This document shows, piece after piece, positions 922 through 10,082 of a stretch of DNA of 64,000 bases (within the stretch, counting starts at the first letter, position 1; every line of letters starts with the position of its first letter). This stretch comes from Escherichia phage A5-4, in the sequence record OP744025. One strand, given 5' to 3'. The position numbers and the translations under genes are program-made. The notes beneath the pieces were generated by a model. That model did no database searches and had not been told where the DNA came from. It worked only from the letters and a program-made list of their open reading frames with translations.

Positions 922-2157
922 ATGATCCCTTTTCCAATTATTAATTTCGGTGGCGGTGTTCCACTACCTATAGGCGTTACAATCAAGTATGCAGTAAGTA
1001 CCAGCACCGGAAATATTTTTATTCTGCTTACCAATGGGCATCTATATGTAACCGGATCTAATTATCTAAACGGGCTTGGTAAAACAGGGACCACAAATAA
1101 TGCAACTTCGGGATGGTCACTTACTAACACAGGTGTTGAAGAAGTTTATGAGGTAGGAACAGAAAGTACACTGTACGGCGGTGTGTGGGTTAAGAAAAAT
1201 AATAACCACTATGAATATATCTCTGCTGTGGTCTTTCCCACTGTTGACACAACTCTCCAAAACAGTTGGAACGTCTTGCCTGAATCCGCATACATCGTTG
1301 ATGGTGTAAATATTTTATCTTCAGCAATACAAATAGCCAGATCATACGCGATCCAACCCGACGGCACTGTTTACAGACTGCTTCCCGAGGGGCCGCAAGT
1401 AGCTTGGCCTGAAAAAACAAAATACCTGTATTTTGCAAACTATAATGCTATTCGTGTCGAGGTGGATGGGACTTTAAAATACCGAGGCGACAATGGTGTA
1501 GATCAAGTGGCAGGCACTTCTGCCGGAACAACATTATCAACTTGGACAACCATCGGGGATTCTTCTGTAAGGTATATTAGGGCAAAATGTGCTCGTGGTC
1601 AAGTGGCTAACACGAGTGGCGGTTCAGGTGCTCAATCTATTGTACTTGTTGTTGCACAGAGGGAAGATGGGTCATGGGATGCAGTTGGATCGACAGCAAG
1701 AGCAGGGATAAACTCAACCAACGTCCTCGGTCCTAATTTAGCACCTATGACAAGCATACCTGCGGGGGTTGAAGTTTATGTCACTAACCAGGTCAGTTAT
1801 ACAAACGCAAGTGTGGGAACAAGGGGAGCATTGCAAGTGTTCATCTCCGATAGGGTTAATGGCATCTATCAATCAACGGGTGGACAAGGTGGATACACCT
1901 ATTCTTTATTTAGGAATCTTTCTATAACCACTAATGCAACATCTTTCGATAATATATCTGAAGATATTATAAACGATGGTGGTATCCTTCACATGACGGG
2001 TTCATTATCCGATACTTTCAAAGTGATTGTTAGTGGTAATGGTAATCTTTACTGGACAGGGAGAGGATATTCAGGGGCTATGTACCCTGCTGACTTTACG
2101 GCCTCTAATACGATAGCTCAGAAGTTTAACTTGGAAGGTATAGTTATTCCAGCATAA
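922..2157 (+). CDS. tail fibre / receptor-binding-like protein with Gly-rich RCC1-like repeats
   Basis: 411 aa ORF with AGGAGG RBS at 911-916. Repeats of the aromatic-x-x-G-x-x-x-x-G kind (LYVTGSNYLNGLGKTG, LYWTGRGYSGAMYP), same style as ORFs at 62211-64000. Confidence 0.5.
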   Translation: MIPFPIINFGGGVPLPIGVTIKYAVSTSTGNIFILLTNGHLYVTGSNYLNGLGKTGTTNNATSGWSLTNTGVEEVYEVGTESTLYGGVWVKKNNNHYEYISAVVFPTVDTTLQNSWNVLPESAYIVDGVNILSSAIQIARSYAIQPDGTVYRLLPEGPQVAWPEKTKYLYFANYNAIRVEVDGTLKYRGDNGVDQVAGTSAGTTLSTWTTIGDSSVRYIRAKCARGQVANTSGGSGAQSIVLVVAQREDGSWDAVGSTARAGINSTNVLGPNLAPMTSIPAGVEVYVTNQVSYTNASVGTRGALQVFISDRVNGIYQSTGGQGGYTYSLFRNLSITTNATSFDNISEDIINDGGILHMTGSLSDTFKVIVSGNGNLYWTGRGYSGAMYPADFTASNTIAQKFNLEGIVIPA

Positions 2158-2163
2158 AGAAAA

Positions 2164-2190
2164 GGCGCTCAAATGAGCGCCTTTATTTTT
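2164..2190. terminator. bidirectional rho-independent terminator
   Basis: Hairpin ggcgctc-aaat-gagcgcc with A-run upstream and T-run downstream, between convergent genes. Confidence 0.6.
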
Positions 2191-2205
2191 ATCTAAATTT
2201 TACGA

Positions 2206-3381
2206 TCAAAACGGAATATCGTCGTCAAAATCCATATCATCTACAGACATATTCACATGGCCTTCGATATCAGGTGTAGGTGAATCTTCTGCTGACGGAG
2301 TTAACTGCGGTTCCGGCTCAGGTTTCTTTTCTTCTTTCTTAGGAGTTGAAGCACCGTTACGGATCTTATCTTCCAGTTGACAGATGAATCGGAAATTCTC
2401 TTCAGTCTTAGCAATAAACGTTTCAATGTTATTACTTCCCCAACGGGCAGAAAGAATACCACACTGGCCTAAACGAGCACCAAAAGAATAATCATCCATA
2501 GATTTAAACTCTTCGCGAAGTTTTGCTTTAATGGAGTCCATCGCTGCAAGAACTTGCTCTACAACAATACCCTGATTTGCGATCGTTTCATTCGGGAACA
2601 TTGCATCTGTGATAGACAGTGCATTACCTAAACGAATGGGGAGATCATCCTTACCTTTACCTGAACGAGAACCTGTTCCGGTGTTTGCACCTTTTGGACC
2701 ATATGCTTTAAAGCCAGTTACAGTACCATCTTCTGCACGAACACCTGCAATACGACCACCTTCTGAAATCTGACCTGCTTGTTCATCAGTAAGATTTACA
2801 GTAACTTCTGTGCCATCTTCCAGCTTAACAACTACCTTATTGCCTTCGATAGATGTGATATCACCATAAATCTTCTTAGCTGCACCACCAGACGGCTTTT
2901 GCTGCTGTTGGGAACCACTTGATTGCTGCTGTTGCTGACGAGGCTCACGAGCACCGGATGCGTCAGTAATTTTGATACGTGCTTTCTTACCTTCTGTAGA
3001 AGAACCTTGACTACCATCTTCTTTGGTATAGGTCTTGATAACAACAGGTAAACGAATTTTCATACCCTCTTTAAGATCAGTGTAACCACCTTCAGGATTT
3101 TTAATCTGGAACTGATTCTCATACTTCAGGTTTTTAACTTCACCCTCACCAAAAGAAATCCATGCTTGATCTTCACCTTCTTTAAGAAGAACCGCATAGC
3201 GGTGGGTATTGTTAATGCTTTTCTGCTGACCAGTATTCTTGTCTTTGAAGGTAGTCACTCGTGGGCTACCATCTCCATTAATACGTTTGATCATGATACG
3301 TTCAATCGTACCTGCTGCGATGTTTACTGTGGTATCGGAAACAGCATCGTATACAGCATTGATAACTTTAACTTCAGACAT
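2206..3381 (-). CDS. putative single-stranded DNA-binding protein
   Basis: 391 aa. C-terminus DDMDFDDDIPF is an SSB-type acidic tail; Gln/Ser-rich flexible linker (EPRQQQQQSSGSQQQQ); lies in the replication gene block. Confidence 0.5.
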   Translation of the reverse strand: MSEVKVINAVYDAVSDTTVNIAAGTIERIMIKRINGDGSPRVTTFKDKNTGQQKSINNTHRYAVLLKEGEDQAWISFGEGEVKNLKYENQFQIKNPEGGYTDLKEGMKIRLPVVIKTYTKEDGSQGSSTEGKKARIKITDASGAREPRQQQQQSSGSQQQQKPSGGAAKKIYGDITSIEGNKVVVKLEDGTEVTVNLTDEQAGQISEGGRIAGVRAEDGTVTGFKAYGPKGANTGTGSRSGKGKDDLPIRLGNALSITDAMFPNETIANQGIVVEQVLAAMDSIKAKLREEFKSMDDYSFGARLGQCGILSARWGSNNIETFIAKTEENFRFICQLEDKIRNGASTPKKEEKKPEPEPQLTPSAEDSPTPDIEGHVNMSVDDMDFDDDIPF

Positions 3382-3464
3382 TTAAATCTCCTTTAACTAT
3401 TGAACACACCATTTAAGGCCGAGAAACTATATTACAACTAACTTATTTGAATTGCAAACAACTT

Positions 3465-3845
3465 TTAGAGATAAACTCGCTTAACTTTTTCATGAACATT
3501 ATCAAACAAAGTGTTGATCATCTGCAAGTCTTTAATAAGTTCTTCCGTAAATTGTTCTTCTTTGTGAGCAAACACACGAGAACGGTCAATGTTTACGGGA
3601 TCTGCACTTTGGTCACCAGACAGGTCGAAAATGTCGATACCAATACGAGCACGACCTTTTTCAATCTTATTCTCATCATCAATACCATAAACACTCATGA
3701 TTTGCATTTCACGATCTTCTTCACTGTTTGTATAGATGATCGTGGTATTCAGATTCTTAATGCCATCATAAATGTGGATATTACGTGTAGCTGAGATAGG
3801 AATCCAATCACCAACCAAATAATCTTTACCGTCGAAAATACTCAT
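3465..3845 (-). CDS. hypothetical protein
   Basis: 126 aa ORF in the minus-strand block; no recognisable motif. Confidence 0.5.
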   Translation of the reverse strand: MSIFDGKDYLVGDWIPISATRNIHIYDGIKNLNTTIIYTNSEEDREMQIMSVYGIDDENKIEKGRARIGIDIFDLSGDQSADPVNIDRSRVFAHKEEQFTEELIKDLQMINTLFDNVHEKVKRVYL

Positions 3846-3899
3846 CTTCTTTCCTCTTTTGTTTAAGTGGGGCCATTATGCCCCACACTTAACTTTCTG

Positions 3900-4472
3900 T
3901 CAAGGACGTTTCGGTGGACTAACGACACCTTTTTTAGATAAAGGTAATTCGTCTGCATCTTTTCCACGGAGAGATTCTAACCACTCATCTAAAGATAGAG
4001 GTACTTTGCCAACACCCTTGGACCATACAGATAAGCAATACAGGTCGTATGCAGATGGGCCAGCATCACCCTTGTCACCATACGGCCCTTTTAAACTCGC
4101 CAACCAATCCTTTTCATTCAGTGGGATAGTGCCTGGATCTTCTTGTCGAAGAACTCTTAGGTATGTTTCATAAGCAGACTCTCCACGGGGACCCATTGGA
4201 CCAGGTAAACCTTGCGGTCCCTTTGCATACTCTAAATATGCAGACTTTGAACCATCATTGACCACTGAAACTTTATACAATGACCAAGCCAACAGAACTA
4301 TCCAACAAGCAAACAATGCAAGCGGGTAAGGGATCATTGAAGTAAAGAATGACAGGGCTAAAATTACAACCTTGTTCTTGTGATCACGACGGAAAGCGAT
4401 GATCACAGGGGCTAACCAGATAGCAAAGATAACCCACGCAGATAAGATAAACAACCAACTAATGTATTCCAT
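3900..4472 (-). CDS. membrane protein with superinfection-immunity-like N-terminus and collagen-like G-x-Y repeats
   Basis: N-terminal TM region WLAPVIIAFRRDHKNKVVILALSFF resembles the Imm-type motif; C-terminal GPQGLPGPMGPRGESAY and GPYGDKGDAGPSAY triplet repeats. Confidence 0.5.
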   Translation of the reverse strand: MEYISWLFILSAWVIFAIWLAPVIIAFRRDHKNKVVILALSFFTSMIPYPLALFACWIVLLAWSLYKVSVVNDGSKSAYLEYAKGPQGLPGPMGPRGESAYETYLRVLRQEDPGTIPLNEKDWLASLKGPYGDKGDAGPSAYDLYCLSVWSKGVGKVPLSLDEWLESLRGKDADELPLSKKGVVSPPKRP

Positions 4473-4660
4473 TAAGCCTCCTCAGTATCGTCTTTAAAGT
4501 AATCTAACATCCAACTCTCTACAGGTTTCGCATAGTAACCCGTTCGCCCTTTCTTTTGGAACTCCATAACAATTTCATTTGCAATACCTTTTGTGATTGC
4601 GATCCCGATCAGTGCACCACCAGGCCCCATTACTGCATGTGAACTAAGATCATTACTCAT
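4472..4660 (-). CDS. hypothetical protein
   Basis: 62 aa ORF abutting its neighbours. Confidence 0.4.
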   Translation of the reverse strand: MSNDLSSHAVMGPGGALIGIAITKGIANEIVMEFQKKGRTGYYAKPVESWMLDYFKDDTEEA

Positions 4661-4952
4661 TTTTAACCCCCTTCATTTTATCTCTTAAACTTTGAGCATC
4701 CCACGTATAACCTGAGGAGATACCTTTTTCACGTTCACTATCTTTGAACTTGCAAATTACAGATTTTGCTTCACCATCAACAACAACCGCATAACTGTTG
4801 TAGTAATTGTGTTGCTTCTTGCAAAATTCGTGTAACTCCTTGACCTCTGTTGGCATCAGAGAAGGTAGATTCTTGTATCGCTTTGTATGCTCGTCTTCAC
4901 CTTCTTTACAACCTATGAGAAGAAGTATACATAAAACGATCAACCTTTTCAA
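4653..4952 (-). CDS. putative lipoprotein
   Basis: TTG start with AGGAGG RBS 8 nt upstream; N-terminus LKRLIVLCILLLIGC carries a lipobox-like LIGC. Confidence 0.5.
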   Translation of the reverse strand: MKRLIVLCILLLIGCKEGEDEHTKRYKNLPSLMPTEVKELHEFCKKQHNYYNSYAVVVDGEAKSVICKFKDSEREKGISSGYTWDAQSLRDKMKGVKNE

Positions 4953-5101
4953 TAGTTACCTCCTAAATATTTTGTGATCTCTACTGCAAATATTGTTCCA
5001 AGTATAAACCATGTTGCACTTAACACGTTGAAAGGTAAAAACCTTGAACCTGCAAGAGAAACCATAATAAAGAACGTTACAAAAATTTCTGGAGAAATCA
5101 T
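4949..5101 (-). CDS. small hydrophobic protein (50 aa), not in ORF track
   Basis: ATG at 5101-5099 overlaps the upstream stop (TGATG); translation MISPEIFVTFFIMVSLAGSRFLPFNVLSATWFILGTIFAVEITKYLGGNY; stop overlaps the TTG start of the lipoprotein gene. Confidence 0.3.
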   Translation of the reverse strand: MISPEIFVTFFIMVSLAGSRFLPFNVLSATWFILGTIFAVEITKYLGGNY

Positions 5102-5502
5102 CATTGTTTTATAGTTCCCTTTGCAATCAATTCGTCAACCTCATCCTCTGCACGACACATAATCTGATAAATAGTCTCCGGATTGTTTAAGAATTCCGTA
5201 TACTTCTTGATACGGCATACTAAACGTGAACGAACTTGCCGCTCCCGAGTAACATGACGAAAATAATGACCTTTCTGACGATAAACCCAAGCATAGTATA
5301 CAGTCTTTGCTCGATTGCGATCTGAACCTAAACGCTCAGCCAACAGAGTGTAAGGGTCATTATTAGTGGGACCAAACAAAAATATTTCTGCAAAACTTTC
5401 TTTAACGATACGAGATTCTTCATCCGTGATTCGCGGACATTCTTCAGAACCGTAGCGTGGTGTTTTAGTGGCATTTGGCTTCTTAGGGTATACTTTACGC
5501 AT
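5101..5502 (-). CDS. hypothetical protein, possible HTH regulator
   Basis: 133 aa basic protein; segment TLLAERLGSDRNRAKTVYYAW looks like a helix-turn-helix. Speculative. Confidence 0.45.
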   Translation of the reverse strand: MRKVYPKKPNATKTPRYGSEECPRITDEESRIVKESFAEIFLFGPTNNDPYTLLAERLGSDRNRAKTVYYAWVYRQKGHYFRHVTRERQVRSRLVCRIKKYTEFLNNPETIYQIMCRAEDEVDELIAKGTIKQ

Positions 5503-5569: not shown

Positions 5570-6178
5570 TCAATCACAACTGCTTGAAGAACTACTACTG
5601 CTACTGTCAGAAGAATAACTATCATATGAAGATGAGCTTTCATACGAACTTGATCGACTTGAAGAACAGTAAGAACTTGAACTACTTGTACGATCTTCAC
5701 TGGAGGACATTACAGCAGCATACGTTGCCACACCACCTAAAGCTGCCACCTGAGGATCAACCTGGCTAGTTCCATATCCGTTTGGAGAGTCGCTCATTTT
5801 ACGTGGCGCTGCCCGACGTGCCTGATCAATATATTGTCGCTTTGCCTTCGGTGGTAATTTCTTACCTTGAGCATAAGACGGCAGTTCAACACCCTTCAGT
5901 TGTTCATCCAAAGGTTTCGGCGGCGTAGCCTGTGATTTTGGTCGTTCAACAGAGATATCAACAACCTTCATCGTCTTATCTTTGATGTTTAACCCAACCA
6001 ATACCTCATTTTCTTTTAATGGTTCTTCTAAAGATCGTGTTTCAACTGGACTGAATTTAACGCTTGCAGTTTCTTGACGTTGTTCAGCTTGCTTTGCGAT
6101 ATACTTATCGATCGCCGCAGTTTCTACTTCCAGCGGAATAAATAATGATTTTACCCAAGCAACAAACTTCTTGATCAT
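5570..6178 (-). CDS. hypothetical protein with Ser-rich C-terminal tail
   Basis: 202 aa; low-complexity C-terminus SSSSSSYCSSSRSSSYESSSSYDSYSSDSSSSSSSSSCD. Confidence 0.5.
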   Translation of the reverse strand: MIKKFVAWVKSLFIPLEVETAAIDKYIAKQAEQRQETASVKFSPVETRSLEEPLKENEVLVGLNIKDKTMKVVDISVERPKSQATPPKPLDEQLKGVELPSYAQGKKLPPKAKRQYIDQARRAAPRKMSDSPNGYGTSQVDPQVAALGGVATYAAVMSSSEDRTSSSSSYCSSSRSSSYESSSSYDSYSSDSSSSSSSSSCD

Positions 6179-8948: not shown

Positions 8949-9326
8949 TTATACTCCAAATGTGGATTTGATTTCAGCAATAACCTCATGCACATTGTTT
9001 TCGTTTACTTCAAATGTGTAGGACGTTGGTTTAAGGAACGTCTGAGGTGAAACATTAACAAAGAATTCAAATTCATCATCAAAAATTTCAAAGTATTTTC
9101 CAGGTGTTGATTCTTGGCTTTTGAAAACAGTACCATCTTCCATAGTAACAGAAGAAACAGATTTTTCACCAAGGGTGTATGTTTTTAGCTCGTCAACAAC
9201 GAAACTGGGGCCGTGGCGACGGAGTATTTCAACCATAGTTCGGTTAGCTCCACAAATACCAGTACGCTTAATAAATAACTCTTCACACCGAGGATTGAGA
9301 ATATAAGTTTTTCCTACTTGCATCAT
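8949..9326 (-). CDS. hypothetical protein, member 3 of tandem paralog triplet
   Basis: 125 aa; N-terminus MxVGKTYxLNP and C-terminus EVIxxIKSTF shared with the next two genes. Confidence 0.55.
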   Translation of the reverse strand: MMQVGKTYILNPRCEELFIKRTGICGANRTMVEILRRHGPSFVVDELKTYTLGEKSVSSVTMEDGTVFKSQESTPGKYFEIFDDEFEFFVNVSPQTFLKPTSYTFEVNENNVHEVIAEIKSTFGV

Positions 9327-9336
9327 TACAATCTCC

Positions 9337-9696
9337 TTATGCTAAGTTAAATGTGGATTTGATCAGGTCAATAACCTCTTGTGCGTTGCTCTCCGACACA
9401 GATACCTGAATAATTTTAAGGTCGCTGACCTCTTCAAAGTATTCGAACTCAGATTCACGAAGTTCAAAGTACATTGCCCCACAGCCCACACTGAATGAAT
9501 CACACCCTACAGCGCCATCTTCTGTTGTGATGTTATTAACATACTCATCACCTTCGATCATGCTCATGTTGTTAACAATAAATCGTGGCCCGTGCTCATC
9601 CAGAAAAGAAACAATCTCGTGATTGTAACTTGGGTCAGCCTTAATAAATTTGTCTACGAGTTTTGGATTAAGTTTATAAGTTTTACCCACTTCCAT
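9337..9696 (-). CDS. hypothetical protein, member 2 of tandem paralog triplet
   Basis: 119 aa; clearly similar to 9708..10082 (MExGKTYxLN, HGPxFxVNN, YFELxESEF, VSxSNAQExxDLIKxTFNLA). Confidence 0.6.
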   Translation of the reverse strand: MEVGKTYKLNPKLVDKFIKADPSYNHEIVSFLDEHGPRFIVNNMSMIEGDEYVNNITTEDGAVGCDSFSVGCGAMYFELRESEFEYFEEVSDLKIIQVSVSESNAQEVIDLIKSTFNLA

Positions 9697-9707: not shown

Positions 9708-10082
9708 TTACGCCAGGTTAAAGGTAGCTTTAATCAAATCTAAAGTTTCTTGTGCATTACTACGAGAGACGGCAACCTGAATAATAACAGGGTCTTCATC
9801 TTCCCCGACTTCTTTGAAGAAGGGGAATTCACTCTCTGCAAGTTCAAAGTATACACACTTGTTACCTTCGCGGTCGTGAAAAACGTCACTACCTAAAGTA
9901 CCATCTTCAAATATGACATTGTTAACATATCTAACATTATCATAAAAGTAGGTGTTGTTGACAACAAATTTAGGACCGTGTTTATAAAGAAGATCAGCCA
10001 ATTCTTGATTGTAGCTAGGGTCCATACTAATAAAAGCTTTTTCTAAGTCTTTATTAAGAATATAAGTTTTTCCGATTTCCAT
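9708..10082 (-). CDS. hypothetical protein, member 1 of tandem paralog triplet
   Basis: 124 aa; see 9337..9696. Confidence 0.6.
   Translation of the reverse strand: MEIGKTYILNKDLEKAFISMDPSYNQELADLLYKHGPKFVVNNTYFYDNVRYVNNVIFEDGTLGSDVFHDREGNKCVYFELAESEFPFFKEVGEDEDPVIIQVAVSRSNAQETLDLIKATFNLA

Follow-up and report, generated by a model that had tools for sequence, protein, structure and literature searches.

What does a phage gain from a small membrane protein in which a superinfection-immunity-like N-terminus is joined to collagen-like repeats? This question is raised by an ORF on the minus strand (3900..4472) of a 64,000-nucleotide stretch of Escherichia phage A5-4 (sequence record OP744025), which is referred to as the window in the following. 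The initial annotation had described the product as a membrane protein whose N-terminal transmembrane segment, with the motif AFRRDHKNK (aa 26-34), resembles small Imm-type exclusion proteins, and whose C-terminal half contains two stretches of Gly-X-Y triplets, GPQGLPGPMGPRGESAY (aa 85-101) and GPYGDKGDAGPSAY (aa 129-142). This combination had been considered unusual for an inner-membrane exclusion protein. In this study, profile comparisons, structure models, family alignments and gene order were used to analyze what the protein consists of, how it varies among related phages, and which function can be assigned to it.

The gene and its conservation

The ORF starts with ATG and comprises 190 codons plus stop, covering an Imm-like core, a stalk and a conserved tail. 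Its product is 100% identical to the hypothetical protein A54_252 of Septuagintavirus sv54, and the source phage is a Vequintavirinae coliphage with a genome of ~140-145 kb. A Shine-Dalgarno sequence, GAGGAGG (4477..4483, minus strand), lies 4 nt (CTTA) before the start codon, which is overlapped by the stop codon of the upstream ORF (TAATG). The surrounding 5 kb show ~93% identity to the phages A73, W70, A7_1, LTH01, and UPEC06, and all genes of the matching 5 kb are annotated as 'hypothetical' in these five phages. This label, found in all records, is the one point in favor of a chance ORF or of low-complexity sequence miscalled as a gene, and the probability of such an artifact is close to nil. 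Compared with the UPEC06 orthologue, dN/dS is ~0.16 overall (membrane half ~0.13-0.16, C-terminal half 0.16); purifying selection acts on both halves alike. Also, 28 phage genomes and many metagenomic contigs have the gene in this same place. Because of the dN/dS of 0.16 and the strong ribosome binding site, we regard the gene as real and under selection, and the conservation data together with the confidently modeled membrane core refute the reading as a chance ORF.

The membrane core is related to T4 Imm

Hydropathy analysis of the protein revealed hydrophobic stretches at aa 4-27 and 35-65, which flank a loop with a charge of +4. An AlphaFold2 (AF2) monomer model calculated from a 25-sequence family alignment was confident for aa 1-70 (pLDDT 84-93) with helices at aa 2-28, 34-45 and 48-70. 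Thereby, three parts can be delimited on the minus strand: a first transmembrane helix (aa 2-28; 4389..4469), the basic loop RRDHKNK (aa 28-34; 4371..4391), which is predicted to be cytoplasmic, and a second hydrophobic region of 31 residues (aa 35-65; 4278..4370). The break between the second and the third AF2 helix (46-47) falls at the conserved residues S45 and P48; according to the model, the second hydrophobic region may cross the membrane as a kinked helix or fold back as a helical hairpin. The topology prediction that had been proposed as a check on the initial annotation thus supported a membrane protein, both by the two hydrophobic stretches and by the confident helices.

On the basis of profile comparison, conservation and the AF2 model, aa 1-66 (4275..4472, minus strand) are assigned to a divergent version of the T4 Imm / PF14373 membrane core. 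The family profile aligned with T4 Imm in hhalign with a probability of 86.6% (E 4.4e-6) over 54 columns covering both hydrophobic segments, and an alignment of 21 core sequences gave 85.7%. In the hhalign alignment, P26, R33, and W55 of T4 Imm pair with P22, R29, and W57 of the family, whose conserved core residues are P22, A26, R29, H31, N33, S45, P48, and W57. P22 is invariant, R29 is conserved to at least 90%, and W57 is invariant in an alignment of ten phages. W50 of T4 Imm has no clear counterpart in the Vequintavirinae family because the family carries a 6-residue insertion at that place. For T4 Imm, it was described that the N-terminus faces the periplasm, that the tape measure protein gp29 is bound at its helical-bundle domain, and that exclusion is weakened by the exchanges R33A and W50A (bioRxiv 10.64898/2026.03.06.709160).

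The Pfam model PF14373 itself matched the 190-aa protein with 18.8 bits (E 0.0015; profile positions 1-26 of 42), which is below the gathering threshold of 27.9 bits. It matched 5 of 10 family members, mostly below the threshold (best E 1.8e-5), and precomputed PF14373 matches were present on three relatives. The PHROG described as 'immunity to superinfection' (phrog_1039) matched the 190-aa protein with 5e-6, and two homologues bear the automatic UniProt name 'Superinfection immunity protein'. Comparison with PADLOC gave no match for the protein. A search of 1.84 billion representative sequences with a core-only HMM returned the phage family first, followed by ~190 short proteins bearing the canonical PF14373-type motif LPxxIAxxRxHxN...GW..GW. 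The superinfection-immunity-like character noticed at the N-terminus was therefore supported by the hhalign result, phrog_1039 and the mostly sub-threshold PF14373 matches. In bacteria, the PF14373 domain is widespread and fused to a variety of partners, such as SHOCT domains, signal-peptide extensions and zinc ribbons; it may therefore represent a membrane module of a generic kind.

The C-terminal half resembles a small tail-fibre repeat array

The C-terminal half begins with a degenerate partial module, SKSAYLEYAK (aa 75-84; 4221..4250, minus strand as for all features of this section), which precedes a first Gly-X-Y run of five triplets, GPQGLPGPMGPRGES (aa 85-99; 4176..4220). It is followed by a module of 31 aa, SAYETYLRVLRQEDPGTIPLNEKDWLASLKG (aa 99-129; 4086..4178), a second run of four triplets, GPYGDKGDAGPS (aa 129-140; 4053..4088), and a second 31-aa module, SAYDLYCLSVWSKGVGKVPLSLDEWLESLRG (aa 140-170; 3963..4055). 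The protein ends with the peptide GKDADELPLSKKGVVSPPKRP (aa 170-190; 3903..3965), which is family-invariant in the alignments and has the consensus G(K/R)DA(D/E)E(I/L)PLSxxGV followed by basic residues. Each run hence leads into one SAY..Y...WLxSL(K/R)G module, the first reading SAYETYLRV...EKDWLASLKG and the second SAYDLYCLS...LDEWLESLRG.

The Gly-X-Y periodicity is beyond chance: two in-register runs with at least 4 Gly occurred in 6e-5 of 100,000 composition-preserving shuffles, and one run with at least 5 Gly in 1.4e-3 of them. The collagen model PF01391 reached 14.4 bits on the 190-aa protein, below its threshold of 27.2 bits, with runs of only five and four triplets. Collagen matches in Pfam (E<=0.01) were obtained for 7 of 10 relatives (best 1.4e-5), and clusters of the CR3 type bear precomputed PF01391 matches. 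NCBIfam gave only weak matches to collagen adhesins on the 190-aa protein.

The same unit of run plus module is present in 13 copies in Psa21 gp201 and in one copy in gp42 of the Xylella phage Salvo. Tblastn searches matched fibres of 201phi2-1, RSF1, Streptomyces phages, and jumbo phages, and PHROGs for tail fibres or tails matched aa 62-140 (2e-7 to 7e-5). Since no curated Pfam model for the module was found, an HMM was built from 15 modules of Psa21 and Salvo; it scored 37.7 bits on the 190-aa protein compared to at most 7.0 bits in 2000 composition-matched shuffles. In the AF2 model, helices were placed with low confidence in module 1 (aa 100-108 and 120-127) and module 2 (aa 141-151 and 161-168), and pLDDT of the stalk was 45-63. 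Judged by these similarities, the C-terminal half can be described as a miniature tail-fibre repeat array ending in a conserved PLSKxGV peptide. The two collagen-like runs of the initial annotation are thus real (shuffle p 6e-5), while their description was incomplete, as the interleaved tail-fibre modules and the peptide at the end had been overlooked.

Searches for further relatives of this part gave little. No PDB sequence matched the C-terminal half even at an E-value of 10, and a Foldseek comparison of the AF2 model with PDB and BFVD returned only the protein's own orthologue. Matches of module 1 to Sel_put and to KCU-star 'selenoprotein' families were weak and were rejected as chance similarity of a short helix-loop-helix. 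No further SAY module was found in the window, including the fibre genes that the phage itself carries there, or in the tail-fibre region of A73, and tblastn of related genomes found one place with SAY modules per record. Therefore, mimicry of the phage's own fibres is unlikely.

Apart from its conservation, the stretch D-A-D-E-(I/L)-P-L-S of the terminal peptide was seen to resemble loosely the tip D-D-D-I-P-F of the SSB-like protein encoded nearby. As this stretch is internal and not C-terminal, the likeness may be a coincidence.

Stalk length varies within the family

The protein is a member of a syntenic family restricted to Vequintavirinae, for which database searches gave ~33 sequence clusters plus further divergent representatives sharing the core, or ~40 clusters in all. 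INPHARED contained 28 records, which comprise Certrevirus, the Septuagintavirus-like group of E. coli phages and the Salmonella phage SSBI34. Membrane core and C-terminal peptide are constant across the family and everything between them varies, the stalk spanning 0-13 triplets and 0-2 modules. A member of 89 aa (P0062) has no triplet, CR9 has 4, CR3 has 10, and both SSBI34 and P0086 have 13. A single SAY module was found in P0023, P0028, P0032, P0061, P0064, and P0067, and two modules were found solely in the A54_252 lineage. The closest single-module relative, P0067, corresponds to the 190-aa protein minus an internal block consisting of run 2 and module 2.

In a tree of the core, module-bearing members are spread over at least five separate lineages; modules have therefore been gained or lost more than once. 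In the comparison with UPEC06, dS was 0.43 in the C-terminal half and 0.10 in the membrane core, an approximately four-fold difference, and the degenerate SAY segment differs by an indel of 5 aa in the UPEC06 orthologue. The excess of dS and the indel suggest a stalk that is mosaic or prone to recombination. According to the sequence alignments, a variable-length stalk on an Imm-like core is thus the family-wide architecture. Within this Vequintavirinae family, the combination that had been considered unusual is the norm and not a one-off fusion.

A conserved three-gene cassette in a replication block

Two further small genes are conserved jointly with the Imm-like gene. The first gene of this cassette encodes a 51-aa protein with two hydrophobic segments (4949..5104, minus strand; phrog_22594), and the second a 99-aa lipoprotein (4653..4952, minus strand; phrog_15849) with the lipobox LLIGC and the invariant residues C44 and C67. 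The order of ~50-aa protein, ~95-aa lipoprotein and Imm-like protein, with overlaps of 1-4 nt, was present in every lineage examined, including the stalk-less one. In Certrevirus, the lipoprotein gene is translationally coupled to the Imm-like gene. In the window, a 62-aa ORF with no family match (4472..4660, minus strand) lies between the two; an ORF of 62-74 aa at this position (e.g. 4754..4978 in locus L014) is confined to the E. coli-phage lineage. For the lipoprotein, an AF2 model based on an alignment of database homologues predicted a small alpha-beta3-alpha domain of ~80 aa (pLDDT 79) with a probable disulfide, and no significant structural neighbour of this model was found. An NCBIfam match of the lipoprotein to EexN (E 0.03) was discarded as weak and probably due just to the signal peptide.

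The Imm-like gene is located near the end of a minus-strand block that begins with the DNA polymerase gene, contains many small ORFs, and ends with a DUF7325 gene and the gene of a 391-aa protein (2206..3381, minus strand). The latter terminates in DMDFDDDIPF, is annotated as hypothetical everywhere, matches phrog_4477 (unknown function), and judging from its sequence is probably the SSB-like protein of the phage. The block and the tail-fibre genes run towards each other, and a bidirectional terminator with a perfect 10-bp stem (2161..2184) separates the SSB-like gene from a tail-fibre gene (922..2157, plus strand). Sigma70-like promoters with 11/12 matches are present near the Imm-like gene.

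Several other features of the region were recorded. At the stop codon of the Imm-like gene, and overlapping it, there is a minus-strand sigma70-like promoter, TTGACA-17-CATAAT, from which the DUF7325 and SSB-like genes are predicted to be transcribed; the promoter spacer contains a GC-rich hairpin (GTGGGGC/GCCCCAC; 3867..3903). In the Certrevirus phages CR9, F1M1E, KaOmega, and POP15, an extra gene for a protein of ~215 aa directly follows the Imm-like gene (3317..3961, 1842..2492, 1830..2483, and 1823..2461 in the extracted loci L004, L006, L007, and L009); CR3, PcCB7V, DU_PP_I, and the window lack it. Further upstream on the minus strand of the window, a 202-aa protein (5570..6178) matching phrog_13005 has an extremely Ser-rich C-terminal tail, SSSSSSYCSSSRSSSYESSSSYDSYSSDSSSSSSSSSCD, and the motif (V/I)GKTY-x-LN recurs in three tandem paralogues of ~120-125 aa (8949..9326, 9337..9696, and 9708..10082), which also have a C-terminal motif in common.

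Orientation of the stalk

The charge pattern bears on the side of the membrane that the stalk faces: the N-terminal tail is acidic, the loop has a mean charge of +3.8 across the family, and the residues following the second hydrophobic region carry no net charge; predicted N-terminal signal peptides of relatives support an N-out orientation of the core. Because of the positive loop compared to the neutral C-terminal flank and because of the periplasmic lipoprotein partner, the odds lean slightly towards a stalk on the periplasmic side.

The opposite arrangement, with N-terminus out, C-terminus in and the second hydrophobic region folded as a helical hairpin, is less probable, yet it carries appreciable weight. 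The second hydrophobic region comprises 31-35 residues across the family (mean 33) with a conserved central Pro, and its length, the conserved S45/P48 and the AF2 break at 46-47 would suit such a hairpin. Tails rich in K/R occur in the short-tailed members P0062 and P0066 and in T4 Imm, P0152 and P0121 have extra transmembrane segments after basic linkers, and the canonical relatives P0158, P0165, P0181, and P0188 carry CxxC...CxxC zinc ribbons at their C-termini. With such Cys4 ribbons, the C-terminus would be cytoplasmic. The gene is also located among replication genes, two genes from that of the SSB-like protein ending in DDDIPF, and the cytoplasm is the usual folding site of tail-fibre repeats. 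With a cytoplasmic C-terminus, stalk and acidic-then-basic peptide might block or watch over the entry channel where it opens into the cytoplasm; alternatively, they might tether a cytoplasmic partner to the membrane. However, CR3-type members have no K/R in at least the first 15 residues past the membrane region, the flanks of the C-terminal tails of canonical relatives are neutral to negative (45 negative versus 33 positive residues), and the tightly linked partner is a lipoprotein of the periplasmic disulfide type. The likeness to the SSB tip is short and internal, whereas the SSB tip requires a free C-terminal carboxylate. As far as their sequences can be interpreted, the fusions of the relatives give conflicting topology signals.

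Proposed function and alternative explanations

Our preferred reading, to which we assign a probability of about 45%, is that of an Imm-type superinfection-exclusion protein with a spacer stalk. It is based on the homology of the core to T4 Imm, the conservation of the experimentally tested Arg, and the location among early genes. The product would be a T4 Imm-like (PF14373) protein of the inner membrane that is presumably expressed early and most likely shields the infected cell from superinfection. In analogy to T4 Imm, the two-helix core would bind the tape measure or pore-forming protein of an incoming related phage and thereby keep it from forming a channel for DNA across the inner membrane. 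Between core and terminal peptide, a variable spacer appears to have been inserted, made of collagen-like triplets and here also of two helix-loop-helix modules that were probably borrowed from the repertoire of tail-fibre repeats. This spacer may trimerise like the same repeats do in fibres (PMC9437275), and would hold the terminal peptide (DADE-I/L-PLSKxGV plus basic residues) off the membrane. If located in the periplasm, the peptide could meet either the incoming tail tip or the co-encoded lipoprotein. Runs of four to five triplets are short for a stable triple helix.

A bolder version of the exclusion reading, which we consider rather unlikely, is that Vequintavirinae phages have turned tail-fibre parts, collagen-like triplets and SAY...WLxSLKG knots, into a component of defence: a trimeric, membrane-anchored 'periscope' of adjustable length on an Imm core. 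This periscope would expose the conserved peptide to the tail tip or the tape measure protein of the incoming phage, or dock onto the lipoprotein. If this were true, several parts would form an exclusion machine across the periplasm, with a stalk length that evolves in step with the tails of the attackers; it would contain the first collagen-like helix anchored to the inner membrane in a Gram-negative periplasm, and would be the first exaptation of fibre repeats to exclude superinfecting phages.

Two other explanations have to be weighed against an exclusion protein with a spacer stalk. The core could be a generic two-helix anchor, so that the activity lies in stalk and tail and is unrelated to exclusion; the protein could then be a fibre-protein decoy or assembly factor, or a modulator of a host envelope protein. 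Fusions of PF14373-type cores to many unrelated bacterial domains fit this idea, as do a terminal peptide conserved as strongly as the core and the homology of the stalk to fibre repeats. It is nevertheless improbable, as mimicry of the phage's own fibres is hard to reconcile with fibre genes that have no SAY module (in the window and in A73), the conserved core residues are those in common with T4 Imm including the functionally tested Arg, and the core is retained in members that have no stalk at all.

Alternatively, the cassette could be an envelope or lysis-timing device with the Imm-like protein as holin, antiholin or spanin-like component, its stalk extending to the lipoprotein and so linking the two membranes or the peptidoglycan; we judge the device and such a coupling role of the stalk both as quite improbable. 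Spanin pairs consist of a type II i-spanin with a single transmembrane segment and a long periplasmic coiled coil and of a short proline-rich o-spanin, and are encoded in the lysis cassette. Three membrane or envelope proteins conserved jointly in overlapping genes would suit a device of this kind, stalk plus lipoprotein superficially resembles such a pair, and T4 Imm has been said in a review to resemble a holin (PMC6832632). The details are different, however: the cassette has the lipoprotein gene ahead of the Imm-like gene, the membrane anchor consists of two helices, and the lipoprotein is predicted to be a folded alpha-beta domain of ~80 aa instead of a short proline-rich o-spanin. A stalk of no triplet in P0062 or of four in CR9 is too short to span the periplasm, and the cassette is located within a replication/early block, where a scan of the ten neighbouring ORFs with PHROGs or Pfam detected no endolysin. 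With this gene order, the two-helix anchor, a stalk of 0-13 triplets, and no adjacent lysis genes, a spanin pair was rejected.

Comparison with known systems

The mechanism of T4 Imm, binding of the tape measure protein, has been proposed only recently, and the family described here can be seen as a natural experiment on this theme, with a similar core, a spacer of 0 to ~125 residues, an invariant end peptide, and a constant pair of lipoprotein and 50-aa partner. If its members do exclude phages, they would illustrate ways in which proteins of the Imm type are lengthened and diversified, and would provide a tractable set of length variants. They could also explain cross-exclusion among rV5-related phages in therapy cocktails. 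In addition, the family gives an example of tail-fibre repeat modules recombining into a non-structural gene. Our literature search found neither a paper on an Imm-like protein extended by collagen-like or fibre repeats nor an exclusion system in Vequintavirinae.

T4 Imm is the closest known counterpart. Both proteins have a small N-out core with a Pro in the first helix, an Arg in the basic loop and a Trp in the second region, and both are encoded among early or replication genes of a virulent myovirus. T4 Imm has 83 aa with a tail of 18 aa, in contrast to the extension of 124 aa found here, which contains the stalk with its two fibre modules and the PLSKxGV peptide. Further differences are the 6-residue insertion with the conserved S45/P48 in place of N49-W50 of T4 Imm, a PF14373 score below the Pfam threshold, and an exclusion activity that is predicted from homology.

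With the fibres of Psa21 (gp201), Salvo (gp42), 201phi2-1, and RSF1, the stalk shares the succession of (G-X-Y)4-5 and SAY-x-x-(A/Y)...(E/D)-W-L-x-S-L-K-G. Collagen-like linkers of variable length are known from trimeric phage adhesion devices (PMC9437275). Unlike these tail fibres, the protein has only two units, with modules of 31 aa instead of 24-26 aa because of longer loops, and it carries a membrane anchor and no domain for receptor binding or baseplate attachment. Its gene is located outside of the structural module, within the early/replication block and on the strand opposite to the fibre genes.

In a wider sense, the protein is comparable to HK97 gp15, TP-J34 Ltp, T5 Llp, and T4 Spackle, which are likewise small envelope proteins encoded by early or moron-type genes. 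Action on the tape measure protein has been reported for HK97 gp15, and TP-J34 Ltp reportedly acts on this target as well. The lipoprotein partner of the Imm-like protein, in turn, recalls T5 Llp and TP-J34 Ltp.
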